A stretch of 64,000 nt of DNA from Candidatus Hermodarchaeota archaeon (GCA_048885865.1 JBHLLF010000013.1:1-64000), one strand, 5' to 3'; positions 31-18,287 are shown, counted from the stretch's first letter. A program made the numbers and translations. The notes: generated from the sequence alone by a model not told the origin.

Positions 31-114
31 TTCTCAAATCCGATGAAACAGGTTAGACACGGTAATCCTGGGATAGGTGCAACCAAAAGCAGCGCTTACG
101 TGCCTCTAAAGTAG
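31..114 (+). repeat. Copy 1 of uS19 (rps19p) 3'-end direct repeat; putative att-like site
   Basis: Translates to FSNPMKQVRHGNPGIGATKSSAYVPLK*, matching the conserved C-terminus of archaeal uS19/eukaryotic S15 (..EFS....V.HG.PGIGAT.SS.F.PLK). The upstream codons (LGGERQLQPR) do not match uS19, so this is not the intact gene. Confidence 0.9.
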
Positions 115-186
115 AAATACAGGCCCCTTACTCTCCGAGGGGTTCTTCATTTATCCATTTTACTTTGACCAGACCATGTGTTCATC

Positions 187-1431
187 TTACCACTTTATGT
201 CAATATATTGTGGTAAGCCTTTGAGAGGGGATGTGTCTAAGTCCTTGATTTTATTCCCTTCTAGATACAGTTCCTTAAGCTTTTTGCATTCCAGGAGAGG
301 TGAGAGATCCACTGTTGTCAGTCTGTTCTCTTTGATGGACAATTTCCGCAGAGCTTTACAACGAAACAGGGGAGTCAGGTCGATTGACCGTAGCAGGTTC
401 TTGGAGAGATTGAGATAAGTGAGCTTCTTGCATGAAGATAATGGCCAGAGGTCAATGTCTTCTAGTCTGTTACGAAATAGGAGAACTGTCTCTAGATTGG
501 GGCACTCTGCCAGGGGTGTGAGATCAACTCTCTGCAATTGGTTTCCGAGGATGTCCAACTCGGTCATATCACAATGGGCAAGAGGCGCCAGGTCTATCTC
601 TTTGAGCTTGTTGTTCGAAAGTGATAGGATGTTAAAGTTCTTACAAGATGAGAGAGGGGTAAGGTCTAGAGATTCGAGCTCATTCCGTTCGATTGATAAT
701 TCTCTCAGGCTTTTATTCTGTGACAGAGGCCCTAGATCACAGCCAGTCAATTTGTTTCTGTCAAGGCAGATCTTCTCGAGATTGGCTAGTTTCACAGTAA
801 ATCCGAGGTCTATATTTGTCAGTTCAAGACCTTGAAGAGTCAGCTTCTTGAGGGTTGTACAACTTCCTAGAGGAGCTAGACTCGTTTCCCCAAACCCGCT
901 ATAATATGCAATGAAGAGGTCTCGCAGAGACCCAAGCGATGCTATTTCCTTCAGTGAGTCGATAGAGAATGGACCCGAGTCAATGATGTTCAGTTTCTCG
1001 ATGTTTGGGGTATTGGACAGCAAATCAGAGATTCCAGTGAGTGGTGTGACACTTGAGATTTCAACATGTTTCAGATTCTCCAGTTGCTTCAATGGTGAGA
1101 AGTCAAGACCCTCTAAAGACCCCTTTTCCAGTCTGAGTTCTTCTAGAGAGGGATCCTTCAACGCTTTCTCAATGGCTTTGTAAGTTATTTCTGTTTGTTT
1201 ATTACGCTCTTCTTTCTTACGCTCTTCATCATCTCGCCATACTTCAAAGTCCGCTTCATAATGTAAATGGTCTATTGCACCTGATACTATTCTGTTTAGA
1301 TTTTGCATTACAAGGGGATGGATATTGTTTTCCTCTATCCATTTCTCACTGAATGATACAAGCGCAGAGTAGTTACTTGTCAGGTCATATAGCAATTGGT
1401 GTATTCGTTCCCAAAGCTCATCATCACTCAT
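187..1431 (-). CDS. Leucine-rich repeat protein with N-terminal helical domain
   Basis: 414 aa; repeated LxxLxLxxNxLxxIDLxPLxxC units after a ~80-aa non-LRR N-terminus. Confidence 0.92.
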   Translation of the reverse strand: MSDDELWERIHQLLYDLTSNYSALVSFSEKWIEENNIHPLVMQNLNRIVSGAIDHLHYEADFEVWRDDEERKKEERNKQTEITYKAIEKALKDPSLEELRLEKGSLEGLDFSPLKQLENLKHVEISSVTPLTGISDLLSNTPNIEKLNIIDSGPFSIDSLKEIASLGSLRDLFIAYYSGFGETSLAPLGSCTTLKKLTLQGLELTNIDLGFTVKLANLEKICLDRNKLTGCDLGPLSQNKSLRELSIERNELESLDLTPLSSCKNFNILSLSNNKLKEIDLAPLAHCDMTELDILGNQLQRVDLTPLAECPNLETVLLFRNRLEDIDLWPLSSCKKLTYLNLSKNLLRSIDLTPLFRCKALRKLSIKENRLTTVDLSPLLECKKLKELYLEGNKIKDLDTSPLKGLPQYIDIKW

Positions 1432-1446
1432 TGTTCATCCACCCTT

Positions 1447-1668
1447 TTATGCGCCAACCTTGTAATCTAGAGTATCATGTTTTCGTTTTATTTCAGCATG
1501 GATTATTCTGTATAGATTTCTAAGTTCTAGGGGAGTGATTTTTCTCTCCTTTATCCATTCCTCACTGAACAATATAATGGGGTCCTTGCTGTTATACTCA
1601 AGTAGATCCCATAGTAAACCCTCTACTCCTTCCCATAGCTCTTGTCTACTCATTTCTTCGTCATTCAT
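1447..1668 (-). CDS. Small protein homologous to the N-terminal domain of the adjacent LRR protein
   Basis: 73 aa; ELWE..LL.DL...FSE.WI....I.PL...NL.RI shared with the 187..1431 product; AGGAG upstream. Confidence 0.8.
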   Translation of the reverse strand: MNDEEMSRQELWEGVEGLLWDLLEYNSKDPIILFSEEWIKERKITPLELRNLYRIIHAEIKRKHDTLDYKVGA

Positions 1669-1870
1669 TGTCCATCATCTCCTTTTATCACGCTCAGCTT
1701 CGTTATTATACTACCACCTTTATTGAGGAACTTGTCTTTCTAAGCTCGAAGACTGCTACATCCAATTCAATTCTTTCCCTTTCTAAAAGTATAGTCCCAT
1801 GAATAGAATTCGATTCTGAAATAGGACAGTGGCATATCTTAGCACAAGACTGAACGCAGTAATCTCCCAG

Positions 1871-1954
1871 TTTTCAAATCCGATGAAACAGGTACGACAT
1901 GGCAACCCTGGTATAGGTGCAACGAAAAGCAGTGCTTACGTGCCTCTAAAATGA
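1871..1954 (+). repeat. Copy 2 of uS19 3'-end direct repeat
   Basis: Same peptide as copy 1; 12 nt differences in 84 bp, all silent (10 synonymous codons plus TAG to TGA). Confidence 0.9.
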
Positions 1955-2085
1955 TACTGGAAAAGGCGCACATTCTTCCCTTTGTCTTACGACAGCCCTT
2001 AATCATTCAAGCTTGACCACAAAACGACCCTTGGAACCGGATTCAATCATTAAAGGTTAAATGCAGTTTCAAAATAAGTCAAAAT

Positions 2086-3201
2086 GTGAAGCTGAAGAGA
2101 TACAGAACAGGGCCTCCTGACTTTGAGAGCAATCCAACCCGCATCTCTCTTGGCTCTAAGTATAGTACCATGAAGAACATTGACCAATTGAGAAACTGTC
2201 CTGCTCTCAAGGAGCTTGCTATAAACGGATATAGAGCAAATTCTGTCGATCTCGATTCATTACGTAATTGTGCTGGTCTTGAATCATTGCAGATTTCCGA
2301 TGCTCAGAACATTGAGAGTCTGGACCTCATACCGCTGTCAGTAATGACTGAGCTCAAAGAGCTCTTCTTGGTCAACATTCCTAACTTGAAATCTCTTGAT
2401 CTATCACCACTAGCAGAATGTAGGTCGCTTGAGAAACTATGGATTGCCAACAATAGTATCAAAGAACTGGATATACAACCTATACTTGAACTAGAGAATC
2501 TCGAGCATTTGGATATTGAGCAAATGCCTCTTACCAAAATAGAGGGGGACTCATGTAAGAGCTGTATTCCACTAAAGACTCTGTATCTCGACTACATGAA
2601 CAACCTACAACATCTCAGTCTTGATTTCTTGTCAAACTCTAAGCTAGAAGGAGTTGGAATACATAGAACGAGTATCACTGAACTAGATCTCAGTCCGATA
2701 TCAAATCAAACTCGTATTCAATCTATATTCCTCACTCATCATAAAATAACAGATATTGACCTGTTTCCTCTTGCTGGCTTTTCTGAATTGGAGGTACTTG
2801 AATTGGCTGTAAATCAGCTGTCACGTATTGATCTGACTCCCTTAGAAACATGCACGTCATTACATTCATTGTATCTACATCAAAACAACATCAAAGAGAT
2901 TGATTTAGCACCACTCTCATCGTTACGACTTGCTAATTTGTTCCTATCACATAACCCACTACGAAAAGTGGATATTACTCAGGTCATATCCCCTGAGCTG
3001 CATGTTTTGACGTTTGGACCCGACACAGTTGCAAGAGCTTCCAAAACGATGAAATCATCCACACGTTTTGGTAAAGAAATCGGTTCCACGGGCTATAAAT
3101 CTCAAGTCTTTATTCAATATTATCATGGTACAAGAAGTATTGGTAGACGTAAAGTACCTCATGAAAAAAGACGTGGTCTAGACGTGGTTGAATGGTACTG
3201 A
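2086..3201 (+). CDS. Leucine-rich repeat protein
   Basis: 371 aa with LDLxPLxxCxxLxxLxL repeats; start uncertain. Confidence 0.9.
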   Translation: MKLKRYRTGPPDFESNPTRISLGSKYSTMKNIDQLRNCPALKELAINGYRANSVDLDSLRNCAGLESLQISDAQNIESLDLIPLSVMTELKELFLVNIPNLKSLDLSPLAECRSLEKLWIANNSIKELDIQPILELENLEHLDIEQMPLTKIEGDSCKSCIPLKTLYLDYMNNLQHLSLDFLSNSKLEGVGIHRTSITELDLSPISNQTRIQSIFLTHHKITDIDLFPLAGFSELEVLELAVNQLSRIDLTPLETCTSLHSLYLHQNNIKEIDLAPLSSLRLANLFLSHNPLRKVDITQVISPELHVLTFGPDTVARASKTMKSSTRFGKEIGSTGYKSQVFIQYYHGTRSIGRRKVPHEKRRGLDVVEWY

Positions 3202-3385
3202 TGGGCTCCGAGGTCTTTGGCTGCTAATTCTCTATGATGATTTTACCAGTTCGTATTGGAGTAACAATCGATTCTGGGGTTGAGAAAGTCGGAGAAGACT
3301 AGTCCTGCAAAGGTCTAGAGAGCAAATATATACAAGACCAATCAGGGGCTAATGTATTGCCTTAGAGCCTGGAGGAACATGAGGC

Positions 3386-5704
3386 ATGGTAATCACGCTG
3401 AAATATACATACCGTGATGGCACAAAGAAAGAGGTCGAGTATGATGAGGACGTTGAAGAGATTTGGGAGAATACTCAAGGGATTACGAGCATTGACCTTA
3501 AACCTCTTAGCTCATGTAAGAATTTGAAACATCTCGATCTTGGAACCAACGAATTAACAGAGATTGATTTGAGTCCCCTTAGCTCCTGTAGTAATTTGGA
3601 AGAACTTTATCTTAACACGAACGAGTTACAATCCATCGACCTTAGCCCTCTCAGTCAGTGTACCAAATTGAAGAAGCTCCTTCTCCTTGAAAACAAATTG
3701 CAGACTCTTGACCTCACTCCTCTTAGAACATGCACAGGTCTATTCAATCTAATCCTCTCTTCAAATCAGCTACAGAGCATCGATCTGTCACCTCTGAAGA
3801 ATTTCAAGGATCTGTATGAAATCAATCTATCCTCTAATCAGCTACAGAGCGTCGATCTCAAACCGCTGATGGAGTGCGATTATCTATACATACTTAATCT
3901 TGGCTCCAATCCCTTGAAGAGCATCGATTTATCACCCCTCAGCTCATGTAAGAACCTTCATGTCCTCTTTTTATACTCAACAGAGATTGAAACTGTAGAC
4001 CTTCCCAATCTCAGTGCATGCAGCTCCCTCAATCTCGATACTAACAGACTCAAAAGCATTGATCTCACACCTCTAAGCTCTTGGCAAGGTCTGAAACTTC
4101 TTAGCCTCCAAGATAATCAGCTATCATCAATTGACTTGTCACCGTTAAGTCATTGTGCGAGACTGATGTCACTCACACTCAATGGGAATCAGTTCTCATC
4201 TATCGATCTTTCACCTCTCTCCGCCTGTACAAACCTGCGTGAGCTTACTCTCGACGCCTTGGAGGACGAGGACATCGATTTGTCTCCATTACAGTCTTTC
4301 AAATATCTCGAAGTCGAAATACTGAAGCCTGAGGTCCCTCTAGAAAATAGAACCTTTCAGGTGAAAGCGTATTATTATGGAGGGCCGAGTGAGATTAGTC
4401 TTGACCAGGGGATTGAAGAGATTGATCTCAGGGGGATGTACATCGAGAGTATAGACTTGACACCTATCTGCAAAAATACTAGATTGAAAAAACTTGATCT
4501 CAGCGTGAATCAAATTAAGAAATTAGACTTGGCACCTCTCAATACCTGCCATGATCTACATGAGCTGGACATTAGCGAGAATCAGCTAAGAGCGATTGAC
4601 CTTGAACCACTCAGATTGTGTGCTAATCTGAAGACACTGAATCTCTACCAAAACCAAATATCGAACATTGATCTCGCTCCTCTCAGCGAGTGCTCCAAAT
4701 TGCAGGAGGTCAACCTTCGTGACAATCCCATACAGACAATCGACTTGAGCCCTCTCAGTTCATGCTCTGATCTAGAGGAACTTGACCTAGCTGGAGTGTC
4801 ACTCCAGGAAACAACTCTAGCCCCTCTCAGTTCCTGTGCTCAATTGAAGCACATACGCCTGCGTGATCCAAAGCTCCAAAACATCGATCTGGCCCCACTG
4901 AAGTCATGCACTAATCTTCGAAAGTTTGAAATGACCAAGTCAAAACAGCTTCAAAGTATCGACATTAAGCCCTTGAGCTATTGCACGGAACTTCAATCGT
5001 TTGCATTAGTAGAAACTCTTGTACAGGCCATTGACCTGAGTTCTTGGAGCTCTTTTACAAAATTAGAGAGACTCGAACTTTCTTATGGTCTGCTTGAATC
5101 CATAGACTTGGGTCCACTTTCTTCATGCATAGATTTGGAATTGCTCTATCTCAACAACAATCGGCTAAGGGAGTTGGATCTAGCCCCTCTCTCTCATTGT
5201 AAGAAGCTTCGGAGAGTTGAGCTGGATAATAATCAACTCCTGAACCTTGATCTATGGCCCCTTGAATCCTGTGCAGATTTGGAGAGATTTCGGCTCTTCG
5301 GCAATCAGCTTCAGAATATCGATCTTGGTCCTCTTAGCTCATGGACGTCGCTCCAGCGCCTTGACATTGGCAAAAATCAGCTTGAAGATATAGATCTAAC
5401 GCCTCTTGGTAAGTGTGAGAGTCTCAAGGAGCTCTACATTCATGGTAACAGACTCCAACGTATCGATTTGCGTCCACTTAAATCATGTACCAAGCTGGAA
5501 ACGCTCTGGCTCTCTGGAAACCAACTCCAGAAAATCGACCTTGCCCCACTAGGTTCATGCAAGAACCTGAAAGAACTCTGGTTGGGTTCCAATAAGATTC
5601 AGAGGATTGACGTGAGACCACTGCCTTCGGGAATCAAGAACCGTCGCCGGGGAGTTCAAATGGATAGTGAGGTTAAGACACGCGGAAAATACAGACGATA
5701 TTGA
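3386..5704 (+). CDS. Large leucine-rich repeat protein (two tandem LRR modules)
   Basis: 772 aa with roughly 30 22-aa LRRs; GGAGG upstream; a second cap-like segment interrupts the repeats near the middle. Confidence 0.95.
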   Translation: MVITLKYTYRDGTKKEVEYDEDVEEIWENTQGITSIDLKPLSSCKNLKHLDLGTNELTEIDLSPLSSCSNLEELYLNTNELQSIDLSPLSQCTKLKKLLLLENKLQTLDLTPLRTCTGLFNLILSSNQLQSIDLSPLKNFKDLYEINLSSNQLQSVDLKPLMECDYLYILNLGSNPLKSIDLSPLSSCKNLHVLFLYSTEIETVDLPNLSACSSLNLDTNRLKSIDLTPLSSWQGLKLLSLQDNQLSSIDLSPLSHCARLMSLTLNGNQFSSIDLSPLSACTNLRELTLDALEDEDIDLSPLQSFKYLEVEILKPEVPLENRTFQVKAYYYGGPSEISLDQGIEEIDLRGMYIESIDLTPICKNTRLKKLDLSVNQIKKLDLAPLNTCHDLHELDISENQLRAIDLEPLRLCANLKTLNLYQNQISNIDLAPLSECSKLQEVNLRDNPIQTIDLSPLSSCSDLEELDLAGVSLQETTLAPLSSCAQLKHIRLRDPKLQNIDLAPLKSCTNLRKFEMTKSKQLQSIDIKPLSYCTELQSFALVETLVQAIDLSSWSSFTKLERLELSYGLLESIDLGPLSSCIDLELLYLNNNRLRELDLAPLSHCKKLRRVELDNNQLLNLDLWPLESCADLERFRLFGNQLQNIDLGPLSSWTSLQRLDIGKNQLEDIDLTPLGKCESLKELYIHGNRLQRIDLRPLKSCTKLETLWLSGNQLQKIDLAPLGSCKNLKELWLGSNKIQRIDVRPLPSGIKNRRRGVQMDSEVKTRGKYRRY

Positions 5705-5754
5705 CACTGCTGAAACTTGTAAGGTTCCTCGACCAAAAAGGCACAAATAGCAGC

Positions 5755-5838
5755 ATCTCAAACCCTATGAAACAGGTACGACACGGCAACCCTGGGATAG
5801 GTGCAACCAAAAGCAGCGCTTATGTGCCTCTAAAGTAG
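5755..5838 (+). repeat. Copy 3 of uS19 3'-end direct repeat
   Basis: ISNPMKQVRHGNPGIGATKSSAYVPLK*; 8 differences from copy 1, 7 synonymous and 1 at the boundary codon. Confidence 0.9.
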
Positions 5839-5850
5839 GTCTAGAATATC

Positions 5851-8800
5851 CTAGCGTTCTCTTCCACGTATGAGCCTGGGATACATGAAGTAAGAAATTG
5901 CAGCTAGAAGCGCAATTAATCCGAGAATTGGAATATAGGACAGTAAATCGGGAACTGCATTTAACCGCATTACTTGAACATAAACGGTATCAGTTGCTGA
6001 ATTTCCTGAGCTATCATATGCAATAATGGTGTAATTGTAAGTACCAAAAAGAAGATCATCAACATTGATTACGATGGCGGATTCATTCCATGTTCCTGTA
6101 AGGATTCGGGTACCATTTCGATAAACTTCGAAAATACCAGGTTTAAGGTCTGCTGGGATCCAAGCTATGTTATTTCCACTTTCACCCTCTTGGTATGTGA
6201 TATCTGGTGGATGATTGATTTCTGGAGCAATAGTATCAATAATGGAAATTACTACCATGTCGTTGGACATATTTCCTGATGTATCATTTACAGTGAGAAC
6301 ATATGTGTATTCACCGAGATCCAGTCCGATGATTGTAAGAGATACATTTCCGCCGTTCCAGACTCCAGATTCGACAATTTCATTATTTCTTGTTAGTGAG
6401 TAGTTTGAGGGATGTAGATCGAAGCAGGTCCAGGAAAGGGAGAAGCTCGTATACCCAAACTCAATGTCAATGTCCTCTAGGGGAGTAATAGAGGGGACAA
6501 GGCCATCAACTATTGTGACTAAAACAGTATCAGTTGCTGAATTTGAGGCTTTATCATATACAACTAAGGTGAAATTGTACTCTCCTAAGGCAAGTCCATG
6601 AAGAGGAATGGAAATTGAATCGGTCCAGTTTCCGGATGCAACTTGAACGCCGTCTTGCAGAATCTCATATGATTCTGGATTAGTATCTGATACTAACCAA
6701 GTTACATTGGAACCAGGTTCACCTTCATCAATTTGAAAGTCTGCCAATTCGGTGATGATAGGTGCGGCTGAGTCGAGTACAGTCACTAATACTGTGTCAT
6801 TAGCAAAGTTCAGGTTCTGATCATACACAATGATAGTATAGTTATGAACACCAAATGGAAGCCCATCAATATCCATGTAGATACTCTCTGAGCTCGAATT
6901 CCAATCTCCAAATCTGCAGAGCTCGTCATTGTGATAGATTTCATAGTATGATGGATATAGATCACTTGGCGTCCATGTTAGATTGTGACCAGTTGTTCCT
7001 TCTTCATAAAACAAATCGAGAATATCATTAATAGTAGGAGGTGTGAATTTTGTTACTGTCACATTAACATAGTCTATTGCAGCATTTGATCTCTCATCGA
7101 ATACTATGATAGTGAAGTTGAAGGTTCCAATTAAGAGTCCATCAATGTTTAGAGAGATGCTTTCTGAACTTGAGTTCCACATTCCCTGTTTGATAAGGGA
7201 TGAATCTTGGAATATCCTGTAGATTGAAGGATTCCAATCACTCGGTGTCCAAGTCAGATTCTTGCCGGTTGACCCTTCTTCATAGGAGAGATTATCGATA
7301 TCGTTGATGGTGGGGGATATAGTGTCATCCATAGTCACTAATACAGTGTCCGTAGCAGAGTTTAGAGCTCGGTCATATACTGCTATTGTCACATTTTTCA
7401 CTCCGAAATCCAATAGGCTCAATGGAAAGACGATTGGACTACCATCCCAGGTATTGTCTACTTCGAGTGAGCTATTCACGAAAATCCGGTAAAAGAGCGG
7501 ATTTGCGTCGGTAGGACTCCAGATTATCTGTTCACCTGGATCTCCCTTTTCAGCTAATTTGTCAATTGGAGTATCAAGTGTCGGGCTAATTTCATCATTT
7601 GAGAACTTGGAAACAAACGCATCACCCATTCCATTGTATGTATCATCGATAGCATTCTTAACCGGGATTGAAATGGTTTTGCCACATAGATAATAATCTC
7701 CCCACGCATCCACCGCTATATCTTCGCCCGATGAAACACCAGTTCCACTCCAAAATGAACTGAACTCGAGTTGGTAGTCAGTTGTGTTTATTGATAGGAT
7801 AAATGCATCAGAATAATCCCCTCCATAGGTGTCATCGTATGGAAGATAGAGGGGAAAGTCACTTGAACATGTATAACCAGTCACATAGACTAAATCATTC
7901 TTAATATCCAAACCTCCCTGAGCAGAATCATCAGATGAGCTACCATAGTATGTACTGAATTCAAGCCCATTTCCAGTGGAATTGAGTACTGAGATAATAA
8001 TGTCACTTGCCCCGTTTAATGAACTCTGATATTCATTAAGTAGCGGATAATCATCAGAATAGGAATAGCCTACAATGTACACATTATTCGATGCATCCAG
8101 CCCAATGTCATAAGCTGCATCAAATGTATTTCCTCCTACATAGGTGCTGAAGACAAGGCCGTTACCCGTTGAGTTCAATCTACACACGAAGATGTCATTA
8201 TCCCCTCCAAAATCCGCATCATAGGGATTCTTCATGGGAAATCCTGCGCCTGCAAATCCAGTTATGTAACATGTGCTATCAGTACCTACACAAATGCCGG
8301 CCCCTATTTCATCGCCACTCCCACCAACGTAGGTGCTAAAGATTAGACTTCCAGATGGACTAAACTTGACGGCAATGACATCAACAGTTCCATTTAGGGA
8401 AGTACTCATGGCGGTTTTTGTGGGAAAGTTGCTAGACCACGTTTCTCCTGTGATAAAGATTGAATCATCCAAGCCTACGTCAAGAGCATAACCATAGTCA
8501 CGTGCCGAACCACCAAAATAGCTCGAGAAAGAAACCGCAGTTCCTGAGCCTTCTAGTTTTATGATGAACACATCCCAATCCCCACCTCTCGTATCTTGAT
8601 ATGCATTCATCAAAGGGAAGTCGTCAGATTGTGTCCGTCCTGTGATTATCACATAGCCGCTACTATCAATCTTGATTCCGTGAGGAATATCGGTTCCAGC
8701 ACCGCCAAAGTAAGTGCTGAAGAGAATGGCATCACCCCTCTCATTTAGTTTCGTAACAAAAATATCAGTCCCTGAATTCGAAGAGGAATTCAGAGCATTT

Positions 8801-9651
8801 ACTGTAGGAAAGTCATCTGATGCAGTTGTACCGGTAATATACGAACACCCTATCTCATCAACTGCAATCGATGATCCTGAGTCATCATCGGATCCTCCAA
8901 GATATGTTGAAAAAACAAGCACAGGATCAATGACGAGAATATCAGAGGAGTCATATTCATCAATGGAGAATCCATAGCAATGCTGCCTCTTAGCATCGTT
9001 TTGAAATCTGCCATTTATGAGGCCACCATTCTTCTCGTAGATTTTCCCCAAGTTGTCCTGAAATCTAAGATGAGACTCGGGAAATGTGACAAGTACTTCA
9101 GTATCTGACACAGACATCAGCGTGGTTTCTGTAGCTTGAACTCGAATTAAGGATGGATCAGCTCCAGGATGAACAAGGAATTCGTACTTTATTCCAGACT
9201 CCGAATAGTAGTATCGCAGGTCGATTTTGTGATAAATATCGAAATACCAAATCTCGTTCCAGGTGGGAATATCCGTTTCCCACCAATCCCCAATGAAATA
9301 ATTAACTATTCTGACGTTTCTTTCTCTACTTTGCGGAATTACAAAATTGGACCCTGGAAAGGTAAATGAGAATCGAGAGACTTCATTAGCAGACATCATT
9401 TGAAAAGCTATTTCCGATTTCTTGAAGCTAATCGTGTAAGTTGAATCACTGTAAGAGAAATAAAGGTCTGAATCGGATATACCTCTATAATCCACAAACC
9501 CTCCAAAAGGCAGGTTAGTGGTGGAATTGGAGTCCACATCGTGTGGTACTTCTTTTGAATAGGCATCTATGTCGCTTGCTTTGGGCAAAGATGACATAAA
9601 CGGATGAAGTAAAACAAGTAGAATGAACCCTGATACAATCCTTTTTCTCAT
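5851..9651 (-). CDS. Membrane-anchored surface protein with SBBP beta-propeller repeats and Ig-like repeats
   Basis: Signal peptide; repeated FSTY.GG...D....I.VD..G..YITG.T.S.DFP units; ~90-aa repeats ending GxYNYTIxxYDxxxNxATDTVxV; C-terminal TM helix. Confidence 0.9.
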   Translation of the reverse strand: MRKRIVSGFILLVLLHPFMSSLPKASDIDAYSKEVPHDVDSNSTTNLPFGGFVDYRGISDSDLYFSYSDSTYTISFKKSEIAFQMMSANEVSRFSFTFPGSNFVIPQSRERNVRIVNYFIGDWWETDIPTWNEIWYFDIYHKIDLRYYYSESGIKYEFLVHPGADPSLIRVQATETTLMSVSDTEVLVTFPESHLRFQDNLGKIYEKNGGLINGRFQNDAKRQHCYGFSIDEYDSSDILVIDPVLVFSTYLGGSDDDSGSSIAVDEIGCSYITGTTASDDFPTVNALNSSSNSGTDIFVTKLNERGDAILFSTYFGGAGTDIPHGIKIDSSGYVIITGRTQSDDFPLMNAYQDTRGGDWDVFIIKLEGSGTAVSFSSYFGGSARDYGYALDVGLDDSIFITGETWSSNFPTKTAMSTSLNGTVDVIAVKFSPSGSLIFSTYVGGSGDEIGAGICVGTDSTCYITGFAGAGFPMKNPYDADFGGDNDIFVCRLNSTGNGLVFSTYVGGNTFDAAYDIGLDASNNVYIVGYSYSDDYPLLNEYQSSLNGASDIIISVLNSTGNGLEFSTYYGSSSDDSAQGGLDIKNDLVYVTGYTCSSDFPLYLPYDDTYGGDYSDAFILSINTTDYQLEFSSFWSGTGVSSGEDIAVDAWGDYYLCGKTISIPVKNAIDDTYNGMGDAFVSKFSNDEISPTLDTPIDKLAEKGDPGEQIIWSPTDANPLFYRIFVNSSLEVDNTWDGSPIVFPLSLLDFGVKNVTIAVYDRALNSATDTVLVTMDDTISPTINDIDNLSYEEGSTGKNLTWTPSDWNPSIYRIFQDSSLIKQGMWNSSSESISLNIDGLLIGTFNFTIIVFDERSNAAIDYVNVTVTKFTPPTINDILDLFYEEGTTGHNLTWTPSDLYPSYYEIYHNDELCRFGDWNSSSESIYMDIDGLPFGVHNYTIIVYDQNLNFANDTVLVTVLDSAAPIITELADFQIDEGEPGSNVTWLVSDTNPESYEILQDGVQVASGNWTDSISIPLHGLALGEYNFTLVVYDKASNSATDTVLVTIVDGLVPSITPLEDIDIEFGYTSFSLSWTCFDLHPSNYSLTRNNEIVESGVWNGGNVSLTIIGLDLGEYTYVLTVNDTSGNMSNDMVVISIIDTIAPEINHPPDITYQEGESGNNIAWIPADLKPGIFEVYRNGTRILTGTWNESAIVINVDDLLFGTYNYTIIAYDSSGNSATDTVYVQVMRLNAVPDLLSYIPILGLIALLAAISYFMYPRLIRGRER

Positions 9652-9791
9652 GACTTCGCACCTATGAATAGGATTTCAATGGCCCCCACATCGAGAACGT
9701 AGACAGTCCAGACCTACAGGACAACATGAACCAATTAAATGATGCGAATAAAGACAGGGAAGATACTAAATACACTACACGAGTGTTGGCA

Positions 9792-9874
9792 TTCTCACCA
9801 GTCGGCCGCAAGTCAAGCACGGAAATCCAGAAATCGGCGCTACCAAGAGCAGCGCGTACGTGCCTCTAAAATGG
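9792..9874 (+). repeat. Copy 4 (diverged, decaying) of uS19 3'-end direct repeat
   Basis: 9809-9874 reads QVKHGNPEIGATKSSAYVPLKW; many synonymous changes plus R>K, G>E and stop>W; TTCTCA at 9792 is one base out of frame. Confidence 0.8.
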
Positions 9875-9933
9875 GATAAGTACTTTCCCAGAATAATTGC
9901 GAGGTATCTGCTGAATCATCCAAAGCACTAGAG

Positions 9934-10872
9934 TCATGACTTGAATTTTCTATACACTGCTAACACAACAATGGCTGCAATAACAATCACACAGAGTGTG
10001 AAGAGATAGTTCAGTCCGTCCCCAAGGTTTGCTAATGGATTCATATTTGGGCCAACACTTCCGGTTGGCACTCCAAAAGGAAGCTCACTCACTACATGCA
10101 CAGTAACATTATCGCTTCCTGTGCTAAACCCACCTTCCACGGACAGTTCATAGAAGTGATCGCCCAATGGAAGCCCATCTACATTGATTGTCAACTCATC
10201 ATGCCAAAAGTGATGCTCAAGAAGGTAGCCATCCTTCAATAGCGTGTAGTAGAAGCCGCCTTCCGTGGTTGCCCAAGTCACTTGGTGGCCAGTAGACCCC
10301 ACCAAGTACCAGAGGTCAGGGGTGTCATACAAATAACTATAGAAGTCAACTGTCCAGGACCAGTAGCTCGGGGATAATCCAAATTCCATAATTGGTGATT
10401 GTGCAACGTTTCCGAGTGTGTCGTTTGCCACATAATACACCTGGCGGTAGTAGGTTTCGTGTGGCTGCAATTCTGTAGAGTTATAGAAGAACTCGAGCGT
10501 ATCTGTAAACAGGTCATCATTGCCTTCACTTCGAGTCATTGGAGTATAATCCCAATCACTACTCCCTTGATCGGCAAAGTGCATGATTACTGAATCAATA
10601 CCATCAGGATCTTTTGCCAACACTTTCACCAATAGTGTGTAATCCTCATTCGTTGGACCATAGTATTTGCGCGGGAAATACTCCATAGTAGGATTGCTGC
10701 CTTCACAAGGAATATCAGCCATGTGAATGAATCTGACATCCGTTGGCTCTCGTGCGATTTGATTGCTGTCCAATGAATAGTGTATTAGTGGAGTCAACGG
10801 AAACACACTCAGAATGACAAGGAGAAGAATGTATGATAAAAGACGAGAGCGAATGAAATTTCGATTCTCCAT
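9934..10872 (-). CDS. Membrane-anchored surface protein with Ig-like domains
   Basis: N- and C-terminal hydrophobic helices; INVDGLPLGDHFYELSV..DNVTVHV resembles the repeats in 5851..9651. Confidence 0.8.
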   Translation of the reverse strand: MENRNFIRSRLLSYILLLVILSVFPLTPLIHYSLDSNQIAREPTDVRFIHMADIPCEGSNPTMEYFPRKYYGPTNEDYTLLVKVLAKDPDGIDSVIMHFADQGSSDWDYTPMTRSEGNDDLFTDTLEFFYNSTELQPHETYYRQVYYVANDTLGNVAQSPIMEFGLSPSYWSWTVDFYSYLYDTPDLWYLVGSTGHQVTWATTEGGFYYTLLKDGYLLEHHFWHDELTINVDGLPLGDHFYELSVEGGFSTGSDNVTVHVVSELPFGVPTGSVGPNMNPLANLGDGLNYLFTLCVIVIAAIVVLAVYRKFKS

Positions 10873-10973: not shown

Positions 10974-10991
10974 TTAGAACACGTGTTCTAA
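10974..10991. promoter_or_regulatory. Perfect 18-bp palindrome TTAGAACACGTGTTCTAA; candidate operator
   Basis: Exact inverted repeat between divergently transcribed genes. Confidence 0.5.
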
Positions 10992-11048
10992 GGAAGGACA
11001 AGATTAAGATGATTGATAATTAGTTCATTGCATTCTGGAGGTCTACTG

Positions 11049-11813
11049 GTGCCAGAGAGACCAAGCGAGAGGTACTATCGTACGACAGCAAGATTCTATG
11101 ACCTGTTTGCAGAGCGTCCAGATGAAACACTTTACCTGGAACTAGCAAAGCGCTTTGGGTCGCCCATCCTAGAGCTTGCCTGTGGAACAGGAAGAATCAC
11201 ACTCCTCCTTGCACAAGCAGGTTATGATATCACAGGAATTGAGCTTTCTCCCGAGATGCTAGAGATTGCACGAGAGAAACTGCAAAAGCTTCCTGAGGAG
11301 GTCCAATTAAGGGTCGCATTGAATCATGGAGATGTGACTAATTTCCAATTAGACAAGAAATTCGCACTGATCATCATACCTTGGTCTTTCAAGTTTCTAT
11401 TAACGACTGATGATCAACTTGCATGTCTTAGACGGGTTCGAAATCATCTAGCTGACGATGGCGTATTCATTCTAGATCTTTACCCACGGGAAGTAATTGA
11501 TATGGGTGAAAGAGATAGCGAAACAGTGGAGATTGATGATGCCACCATTACAAGGACGTTCATTTATTCTACAGACGTCTTAACCCAGCTCAGACACACG
11601 ACTTCACTCATAGACATCGTTCATTCAGATGGCAGAGTTGAGCACCTAGAATCTGAGTCTGTTGTATCAATAATCATGCCAAGAGAGGCTGATCTTCTTG
11701 TGAGAATGGCTGGGTTTGAGATTGCTGAAGAGTATGGAGGGGACGACTTCTCTGAATACTCGATTGAAGATTGGAAGAGAATATTAGTTCTCAAGAAAAA
11801 GCCCGATGGCTGA
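11049..11813 (+). CDS. Class I SAM-dependent methyltransferase
   Basis: ILELACGTGR motif I; GTG at 11049 preceded by GGAGGT (ORF track start 11013). Confidence 0.9.
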   Translation: MPERPSERYYRTTARFYDLFAERPDETLYLELAKRFGSPILELACGTGRITLLLAQAGYDITGIELSPEMLEIAREKLQKLPEEVQLRVALNHGDVTNFQLDKKFALIIIPWSFKFLLTTDDQLACLRRVRNHLADDGVFILDLYPREVIDMGERDSETVEIDDATITRTFIYSTDVLTQLRHTTSLIDIVHSDGRVEHLESESVVSIIMPREADLLVRMAGFEIAEEYGGDDFSEYSIEDWKRILVLKKKPDG

Positions 11814-11934
11814 GCTTTCGTTGAAATAGATACGATGATGGAGAACCCACCAATTTCGCATTATCATTTGATTTATCTACGATTTTAGCAGACTGTATCC
11901 ACTGAGGAGTGCTAGAGTTTCAGGTGGTCAATGG

Positions 11935-12489
11935 ATGAAGAGCTGGATCGGCCCTCGAACAGTGTACATAGACTGCTATGACGCATTTGGATTCTTGGAG
12001 GAGAACTATGAACGAATCATGATTGTCATGTCATCTATTGGGAAATCAATCCTCTTGAAACGGGAAATGGTGCCGGCTCATGGAGGGAGAACGGCGGAAA
12101 CTTTGCGTTGCACGTTCGAAACTGAGTTGGAACCAATACATGTGAAGACAATGATGCTAGGTTTGCAGTATCTTGACTCTAAGGCGGTCCCATATAATAT
12201 TCCTATAGAAGAGGAAAAAGACCTCTTCAGATTCGCAAACATCGAAGTGACTGAACTAATGGAAACGGGATTAGAAGAGAAAGGCCGATTCATTAGCAGG
12301 AGAAGGCAACCTGAAAAGAAGATAGAGCTCTCGGACTTGGAGTTCATTGGAGACGCCAAAGTCTTCATCAATGCTTGTAGAGACCGGCTCATTGAGAATT
12401 TAGACAACTCATTACGCGAAAAGCTATTCGGCATTGAACAGCTGATTCTGGACAAGTTACAGGCTTCTAGGGAACCAGAAGGACACTGA
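11935..12489 (+). CDS. Hypothetical protein
   Basis: 184-aa ORF with AGGTGG upstream; no recognised motif. Confidence 0.7.
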   Translation: MKSWIGPRTVYIDCYDAFGFLEENYERIMIVMSSIGKSILLKREMVPAHGGRTAETLRCTFETELEPIHVKTMMLGLQYLDSKAVPYNIPIEEEKDLFRFANIEVTELMETGLEEKGRFISRRRQPEKKIELSDLEFIGDAKVFINACRDRLIENLDNSLREKLFGIEQLILDKLQASREPEGH

Positions 12490-17672: not shown

Positions 17673-18287
17673 CTATTTCCAGCTGATTCTACTGACGAAT
17701 GACTTCAGCGCCATGGGTGGTTTTACTTTCTTGAGTTTAGCTGATGCGGTCATACTCACGTCTGAATCAAGACCTAGTTGGACAAGCCGGCGACAATAAT
17801 AGAGCGGAGATAAGTCGGCAGATGTGATTTCGTTCTTTGTTAGAGTGATGTTCCGCATCTTCTTGCATTTACGGAGAGGGGAGAAGTCAATCGTTTCAAT
17901 CTTATTCTCGTAGAGATGGAGCGCTTTCAGTTCTGGGCAATAGGTTAGGGGCGTGAGGTCAATCGAATGCAATCTGTTGAAGGAGAGATCTAGATGCATC
18001 AGACTTGCACATCCTTCAAGAAATGACAAATCAATTGTTTCGAATTGATTTCCGCCAAGGTAGAGCTCGAGCAACGTCGAATTGCCTTGTAGTTTAGAAA
18101 GATCAACAGATTGTATCTCGTTGCCAGAAAGAGTAAGCACCTCTAGGTTTTGAAACTGATCAAGTGACGAGAGGTCTGTTGTAGCAATCCGTCTATCACT
18201 GAGGTTAATCTCTGTTGTATCTGTATCAAACTGCTCTACAACTTTACCGCCCGTCTTTGTTTCACTCCAAATAGTAATCTCCGTCAT
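17673..18287 (-). CDS. Leucine-rich repeat protein
   Basis: 204 aa; same IDLxPL LRR type as the array proteins. Confidence 0.9.
   Translation of the reverse strand: MTEITIWSETKTGGKVVEQFDTDTTEINLSDRRIATTDLSSLDQFQNLEVLTLSGNEIQSVDLSKLQGNSTLLELYLGGNQFETIDLSFLEGCASLMHLDLSFNRLHSIDLTPLTYCPELKALHLYENKIETIDFSPLRKCKKMRNITLTKNEITSADLSPLYYCRRLVQLGLDSDVSMTASAKLKKVKPPMALKSFVSRISWK

Follow-up and report, generated by a model that had tools for sequence, protein, structure and literature searches.

Displaced rps19 gene ends between cassettes of an Asgard archaeon as the probable legacy of an integrase-free homing element

Introduction

How does a chromosome come to hold several copies of the end of one gene, each followed by a block of other genes? 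The question is raised by the window analyzed here, which covers the initial 64 kb of contig C13 (JBHLLF010000013.1:1-64000) in the 87% complete genome G000, from an Asgard archaeon whose uS19 protein cluster carries the name Ca. Thorarchaeota. In this window, the 3' end of rps19, the gene of ribosomal protein uS19, recurs between gene cassettes. A sequence-only reading had taken the arrangement for an integron-like or accretion platform anchored at rps19, with units of rps19 tail plus cargo mobilized in trans or by homologous recombination. The accretion at rps19 was borne out by our analysis. The array is probably the legacy of an integrase-free homing element together with ordinary recombination; the earlier reading missed both the LAGLIDADG element beside rps19 and the same process at several other gene ends.

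Structure of the array

The window holds four direct, co-oriented copies of the rps19 tail at 32-114, 1872-1954, 5756-5838, and 9792-9874, with spacings of 1840, 3884, and 4036 between successive copies and no 5' part of rps19 ahead of any of them, just as the sequence-only reading had described. A profile search of the window recovered the four tails with E values of 6e-22 to 8e-16, and the next best match had an E value of 0.57. Counted from the junction, the displaced tails occupy 29-114 (to the stop codon), 1869-1954, 5753-5838, and 9789-9874, all on the plus strand. Copies 1-3 encode an identical 26-residue uS19 C-terminus while differing at 6-8 third codon positions each; tail 1 shows 9 third-position differences from the working tail of the strain, and tail 4 is divergent, with seven amino acid changes and a lost stop codon. 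A terminator-like hairpin was read from the sequence after tail 1 (122-144).

The repeats are real, but they extend over about 86 bp rather than about 84 bp, beginning 5 nt ahead of a Ser codon and ending with the stop, and the array does not end at 10872. It extends to about 11850 because a decayed fifth tail, of which only the 5' half is left, lies at 11811-11848 (plus strand). This remnant was recognized by position and alignment and missed by the profile search; it follows a methyltransferase gene, at the position of the ninth (full) tail of the relative G014. On the left, C13 begins within the end of an upstream cassette whose body is unassembled (1-28), and at least one more cassette lies beyond the contig end.

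The intact gene was sought outside the window. Contig C45 of G000 ends within rps19 and has just the 5' half of the gene, and the public contig L347, from the same strain and 99.93% identical to C45 over 3 kb, contains the whole gene, giving the intact co-oriented rps19 upstream that the earlier reading had called for. The flanks of L347 match loose contig ends in run X1. An assembly artefact might be suspected, as 28 nt of C13 precede tail 1 and breaks at the rps19 locus are frequent in assemblies. However, the tails differ from one another; in public runs, one of which (X1) may be the source sample, separately assembled contigs bridge tails 2 and 4 together with the window flanks; and 36 genomes share the layout. 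The array is not an assembly artefact, given these bridges and the recurrent layout, and the chance that it is one is negligible. Among the contigs of four public runs, we found no joined form skipping a window cassette, which for contigs only is not evidence of absence. Steps in read depth from cassette to cassette in these runs were left out of account.

Origin of the tails

Positions in the repeat were numbered from the first base of the Ser codon in the rps19 tail (position 0). Identity to the host gene is at background at -6, reaches 0.53 at -5, and falls after the stop codon; within the tail it is about 0.95 at codon positions 1-2 and about 0.5 at position 3. Among 102 independent upstream junctions, 69 fall in the 11-base window from -7 to +3, with the mode at -5; the junctions of shorter tails trail rightward, and no tail is convincingly longer. 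No conserved motif was found left of the junction when 99 junctions were compared. Hairpins resembling terminators were found behind 119 of 206 tails, compared with 9 in shuffles.

Displaced tails decay (1.27 versus 0.09 amino acid departures). Neighboring tails are never identical and typically show 5-13 third-position differences with few first- or second-position changes. Because the differences lie mostly at synonymous sites, each tail must once have worked as a gene end, in different lineages, and is inert after displacement.

Three further ideas about the repeat were rejected. The codons of this genus would allow a T-loop-like or inverted-repeat core at the junction, but those of other genera do not; a small peptide starting at an in-tail ATG is not compatible with the many tails lacking an ATG and with the stops and neutral changes that displaced tails accumulate; and a fixed distance from junction to terminator across anchors is unsupported (about 109 versus 95 nt).

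Array variation among relatives

The family sample comprised 86 genomes, to which 70 metagenome stretches were added; as kin are not independent, the figures are counts and not tests. An intact rps19 was recovered in 57 of the 86 genomes and 77 displaced tails in 36 of them, all co-oriented, with stacks reaching nine tails (G014). No clear extra tail copy was detected in the other Asgard families sampled, and IMG/VR viral contigs yielded no rps19 tail. The median length of closed cassettes is 1.5 kb, and they hold one to three genes in either orientation (112 plus-strand and 97 minus-strand open reading frames, ORFs).

The comparison of cargo that the sequence-only reading had proposed revealed that both cargo and order differ between relatives. 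In the pairs G008/G013, G093/G098, G089/G090, and G099/G079, a cassette that adjoins the intact gene in one member lies further down the array in the other. Where the members of a pair have just one flanking cassette in common, be it the upstream or the downstream one, the tails are chimeric, and their switch points are scattered over the length of the repeat. Cassettes seem to have been later gained, lost, and reordered by homologous recombination between tails, one of the two routes originally suggested.

Several single arrays deserve mention. In L072 (G091 C188), two tails lie 90 nt apart, start to start, forming an empty cassette. In L047 (G017 C11), histidine-biosynthesis-like genes stand directly ahead of a displaced rps19 tail, and a core operon may lie inside an array there. 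Defense-type cargo of rps19 arrays was found at L156:968-3103, L192:6580-10862, and L086:2696-5266, comprising a PtuA/PtuB-like pair, an HD-CE/HSP90-like ATPase, and nuclease-like genes. Two full, diverged rps19 regions occur in G004 (C1:1263512 and 1318923) on one scaffold with N runs; as the scaffold looks mixed, probably from a mixed bin, the two intact copies were set aside.

Recent insertions and the element at rps19

Two insertions were captured between near-identical strains. G084 and the metagenome contig L135 are identical through rps19 to about -16, after which G084 has a foreign tail; the tail of L135 and the 2.2 kb behind it reappear displaced in G084, from -2, with 99.8% identity. 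The second pair, L160 and L132, is identical to -1 and differs from position 0. The unit therefore begins with a tail, as the earlier reading held, to which a terminator is to be added, and it pushes the old tail downstream. In G084, the left switch lies at about -15 and the right junction at -2, so that the replaced stretch begins about 10 nt left of the junction. A left switch lying to the left of the right junction would fit break repair better than a single reciprocal crossover. In both insertions, the newcomer is the nuclease element described below.

For this element, 589 ORFs in and just beyond the cassettes were clustered. A winged-helix-like gene of 305 aa occupies the first cassette in 15 of 15 cases. 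Its companions are a protein of 700-1240 aa and a membrane HerA/VirB4-like ATPase of 1020-1090 aa, and all of them point at rps19. The C-terminus of the 700-1240-aa partner carries two LAGLIDADG-type motifs with both catalytic acidic residues kept, and a structure comparison of its predicted fold gave matches to I-Tsp061I, PI-SceI, and I-DmoI, so the partner is likely a LAGLIDADG homing endonuclease. Neither a regular expression for LAGLIDADG motifs nor sequence searches against Pfam and PDB detected the nuclease, whose family is too divergent for them; it was revealed only by alignment and fold. Weak fold matches suggest tandem winged helices plus a coil in the 305-aa protein, whose model had no fold match at E <= 0.001. 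Of the genes expected of a conjugative element (relaxase, coupling protein, mating pore), only this one ATPase was seen, with weak CedD and TraD matches below the cut-off; no relaxase was recognized.

Element genes or their stumps lie within 1.3 kb of the intact gene in 11 genomes of the family and in 7 metagenome contigs, to which G102 and G104 can be added. The element, of 7-16 kb and with cargo such as PtuAB-like or restriction genes, sits convergent with rps19, behind the replacement tail and a shared terminator. Complete elements measure 10.3 kb (L156, PtuAB-like cargo) and 16.2 kb (G102) from the intact gene to the displaced tail; when they were read gene by gene, with a part of their ORFs scanned, no gene resembling an integrase was seen in either. 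Stumps of the last codons of the element follow some intact and displaced tails. In the strain of the window (L347), the intact rps19 is followed by an element-type terminator and then by a winged-helix stump (E value 7e-13), which is 82% identical to the element end in L354; the latter encodes the same tail peptide and has the winged-helix gene whole and the nuclease end present. The element at rps19 appears dead in this strain, and the window would hold the old, cargo-only part of such a stack.

The most variable six residues of uS19, 111-116, lie just right of the junction (48 genomes), and this variability may reflect escape from cutting.

Other anchor genes

A second kind of array stands in G000 at C14:2133-17690 (L203, L291), where an acyl-CoA dehydrogenase gene is followed by at least eight displaced tails of 68 nt; its first cassette is a paralogue of window cassette 3. 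Dehydrogenase arrays occur family-wide, with up to 22 matches per genome, and 84 dehydrogenase-tail junctions are concentrated between -2 and +4, numbered in their own frame. In seven genomes, the acyl-CoA dehydrogenase gene is adjoined by a second LAGLIDADG subfamily, and the ATPase was seen in one of these genomes, G091. A dehydrogenase-anchored element of that genome (L287:7462-14858) has type I restriction-modification-like genes, DprA, and a ComF-like phosphoribosyltransferase.

The first nuclease family was found in 52 of 85 relatives, with up to 10 copies each. It adjoins rps19, Lsm, tRNA-Lys, rubredoxin, ahcY, and sufS (anchors named from sequence, not family scans), and in its tree the copies group by anchor. 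In the sample taken across the phylum, one further family has it commonly, and elsewhere it is rare.

Within G000, other displaced tails belong to mvhD (three to four, C56:11492-14000), iscU (C27:16429-19148), a 221-aa gene (C16:198-2184), and a threonine-dehydratase-like gene (C7:44470-46092). On C9, C23, C28, C51, and C5, the last 24 nt of tRNA-Gly, -Tyr, -Arg, -Cys, -Ala, and -Ser are repeated downstream of the genes. A 37-nt rps19 tail fragment (C42:16692-16728, minus strand) lies far from rps19, in a cassette-like region before uvrB, and suggests that DNA moved between arrays. An element-like ATPase gene on C94 is truncated at the end of the contig, beyond which the nuclease gene would be expected. 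A DprA-family match on C22, short, partial, and within a 172-aa frame, was not used.

Cargo and neighboring genes in the window

Cassette 1 encodes a leucine-rich-repeat (LRR) protein of 414 aa (187-1431, minus strand). Cassette 2 carries two LRR proteins on the plus strand, of 371 aa (2086-3201) and 772 aa (3386-5704). Cassette 3 encodes a membrane-anchored beta-propeller (SBBP)/PKD surface protein of 1266 aa (5851-9651, minus strand), and a 96%-identical variant of it in run X3 ends within tails 3 and 4. Cassette 4 comprises a 312-aa protein with no Pfam family, whose relatives are cassettes in G014 (9934-10872, minus strand), and a class I S-adenosylmethionine methyltransferase (11013-11813, plus strand), after which a tail follows in G014 and G005. 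In G000, G014, and G008, the array is bounded downstream by a conserved gene (11935-12489 in the window, plus strand). The domain scan of the window cargo detected no integrase or transposase domain, in agreement with the earlier reading. The G+C content of the cargo is 41-44%, against 46% genome-wide.

A further LRR gene (17673-18287) lies in the conserved region downstream of the array, and G000 has about 12 LRR paralogues that are 30-45% identical to the cassette LRRs. Ahead of the methyltransferase gene stands a perfect 18-bp palindrome (10974-10991), with near copies at C5:61029 and C12:39550 and also in G002 and G023; it is probably a regulator site.

Discussion

The homing reading is favored because the 5' limit of the tails is fixed at two anchors, the nucleases are anchor-specific, and both fresh insertions carry the element. 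Its starting point is an ATPase, a LAGLIDADG protein, and usually a winged-helix gene placed head-on to the rps19 3' end. The nuclease would cut unprotected copies of rps19 near -15 to 0, some 86-95 nt ahead of the last base of the stop codon. The left broken end would then be repaired on the donor, and the outcome seen is a re-spelled tail, a terminator, and whatever follows; the right end, bearing the old tail, would be joined to a spare tail of the donor or by a microhomology of a few bases, which would give many different junctions at one fixed place. A partial-match zone of 4-5 bases at both anchors would fit a 4-nt overhang. Elements decay to stumps while their cargo persists, and the pattern of the tails is one of recombination at variable points, by which cassettes would be gained, lost, and reordered without a dedicated enzyme. 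The ATPase probably moves donor DNA between cells, and the cargo-only cassettes may be elements minus their core or protected alleles copied while the nuclease acts in trans. More tentatively, and with slightly more doubt than belief, we propose for Thorarchaeota a class of integrase-free, self-transferring homing elements, built on a LAGLIDADG nuclease and an ATPase that pumps DNA, with one subfamily for each of numerous essential gene ends, a genome-wide integron-like capture by break repair in which ever new cassettes arise from the cuts, and an arms race at the cut site that drives uS19 change.

Several observations weigh against the homing reading. The known fresh events number just two, each of them spanning contig breaks, and the fold scores of the nuclease are modest (E value 1e-4, template-modeling scores of 0.3-0.5). 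The rps19 nucleases do not form one clean clade, with four changes in the tree. No copy of the rps19-type nuclease was found in the 87% of the G000 genome that is available, where the only element-like ATPase (C94:4161-6658, plus strand) is 36% identical to that of the rps19 element. The window cassettes are without any element stump. A recognizable protein stump follows 6 of 142 displaced tails and an element terminator 9 of 120; because both are so rare, most cargo-only cassettes are tied to the element by junction position alone. Moreover, no target-immunity rule could be read from the comparison of rps19 alleles.

Some of these observations would suit host recombination alone, in which cassettes are captured by one-sided homology with an illegitimate far end and the nuclease element is a frequent passenger. 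The variable switch points inside tails, the majority of cassettes without trace of the element, the failure to find a nuclease in G000, and the occurrence of arrays at many anchors, tRNAs included, can all be read in this way. We nevertheless hold this explanation to be unlikely, for it leaves unexplained the fixed 5' limit at two anchors, the anchor-specific nuclease subfamilies, the constant presence of the winged-helix gene in the first cassette, and the element in both fresh insertions. Classical accretion, in which integrase elements insert at rps19 and decay to remnants mobilizable in cis or served by an integrase in trans, is a still more doubtful candidate. It leads to the same outcome in streptococcal elements at rpsI, rplL, and rpmG (PMC5704250), tyrosine recombinases exist in 29 of the 86 family genomes, and the tRNA-end repeats start at the T-loop, as integrase sites do. 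However, a search of the 87% complete G000 for tyrosine recombinase (PF00589), serine recombinase, reverse transcriptase, Cas1, and rve integrase found none; no tyrosine recombinase was found in the nine-tailed G014 or on any array contig of the 86 genomes either, no conserved arm lies left of the junction, and a single reciprocal crossover would not give the replacement in G084 from about 10 nt left of the junction. The streptococcal type of integrase accretion invoked in the sequence-only reading was accordingly given up.

The fixed length and sharp ends of the repeat could also recall a long target-site duplication of the Cas1/casposon or retro-element type, in which the host's own 86 bp are duplicated. 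This is very improbable: neighboring tails are never identical, neither Cas1 nor reverse transcriptase was found in G000, and the comparison of G084 with L135, in which the old tail moves unchanged and the new tail is foreign, largely refutes it. A true integron, or a cluster of attC sites lacking integron-integrases (CALIN), with attC sites that resemble rps19 would account for the cassette-like look, and integrons are enriched in Asgard genomes (10.1101/2022.02.06.479319). Yet the folding of the four tails tested is no better than that of shuffles, whichever strand is taken (z -0.79 to +0.84), their conservation follows codons, gene orientation is mixed, and no IntI-type recombinase was found. 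An integron in the strict sense is thereby dropped as exceedingly improbable.

The closest precedent is the fungal mitochondrial mobile ORF with a foreign C-terminus. In Allomyces macrogynus (atp6) and Glomus (atp6, atp9, cox2, nad3), mobile endonuclease ORFs bring such C-termini (PMC3630166). The likeness lies in a free-standing homing-endonuclease gene near the 3' end of a conserved gene, a replacement C-terminus, a displaced native one, and no integrase; relatives of G000 have the nuclease beside the host gene end and a foreign in-frame C-terminus with the native one displaced. Unlike the fungal case, the setting here is an archaeal chromosome and an element of 7-16 kb convergent with the host gene, which adds a HerA/VirB4-like ATPase, a winged-helix gene, and cargo (PtuAB-like or restriction genes), and repeated invasions stack up to 9 (rps19) or more than 20 (acyl-CoA dehydrogenase) tails between swappable cassettes.

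In streptococci, integrative and conjugative elements, integrative and mobilizable elements, and cis-mobilizable elements accrete in tandem at rpsI, rplL, rpmG, and rpmE via tyrosine integrases and attachment (att) sites (PMC5704250). The arrays described here share with them an anchor at the 3' end of a ribosomal-protein gene, which the element restores, the newest unit at the gene, and decayed cargo downstream, whereas they lack an integrase and a conserved att arm, their coding repeats are longer, and their crossovers vary. With integrons and CALINs (10.1101/2022.02.06.479319), they share small accessory cassettes between short repeats, polarized growth, and reordering among strains. In contrast to those systems, there is no IntI, attI, or folded attC, and the repeats are spent gene ends. 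T4-like phages have free-standing homing endonucleases too, with intronless and trans homing (PMC2988022, PMC2790892). These enzymes resemble the route proposed here in that the nuclease cuts a conserved neighbor and drags flanking DNA along by break repair, but they are not known to leave a stack of displaced gene tails or a cassette array. Asgard mobile elements have been described with tyrosine integrases and short att sites, unlike the rps19 arrays (PMC11529989), and no archaeal description of such arrays was found in the open-access literature searched.

A mechanism of fungal mitochondria would be carried to archaeal chromosomes, with the addition of cargo and a possible DNA-transfer motor. 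It predicts sharply where the cut should fall, no more than about 15 bases from a known junction, and points to a pool of divergent LAGLIDADG nucleases whose natural targets can be read. Islands of such tails are invisible to tools that seek integrases or attC sites, and the gene ends of markers such as uS19 are mosaic in this family, which is a warning for their use. For Asgard archaea, the arrays offer a concrete route for the heavy turnover of accessory genes in genomes without a detected integrase, rve transposase, Cas1, or reverse transcriptase; if the homing origin is true, the ends of essential genes become sites of gene swapping.

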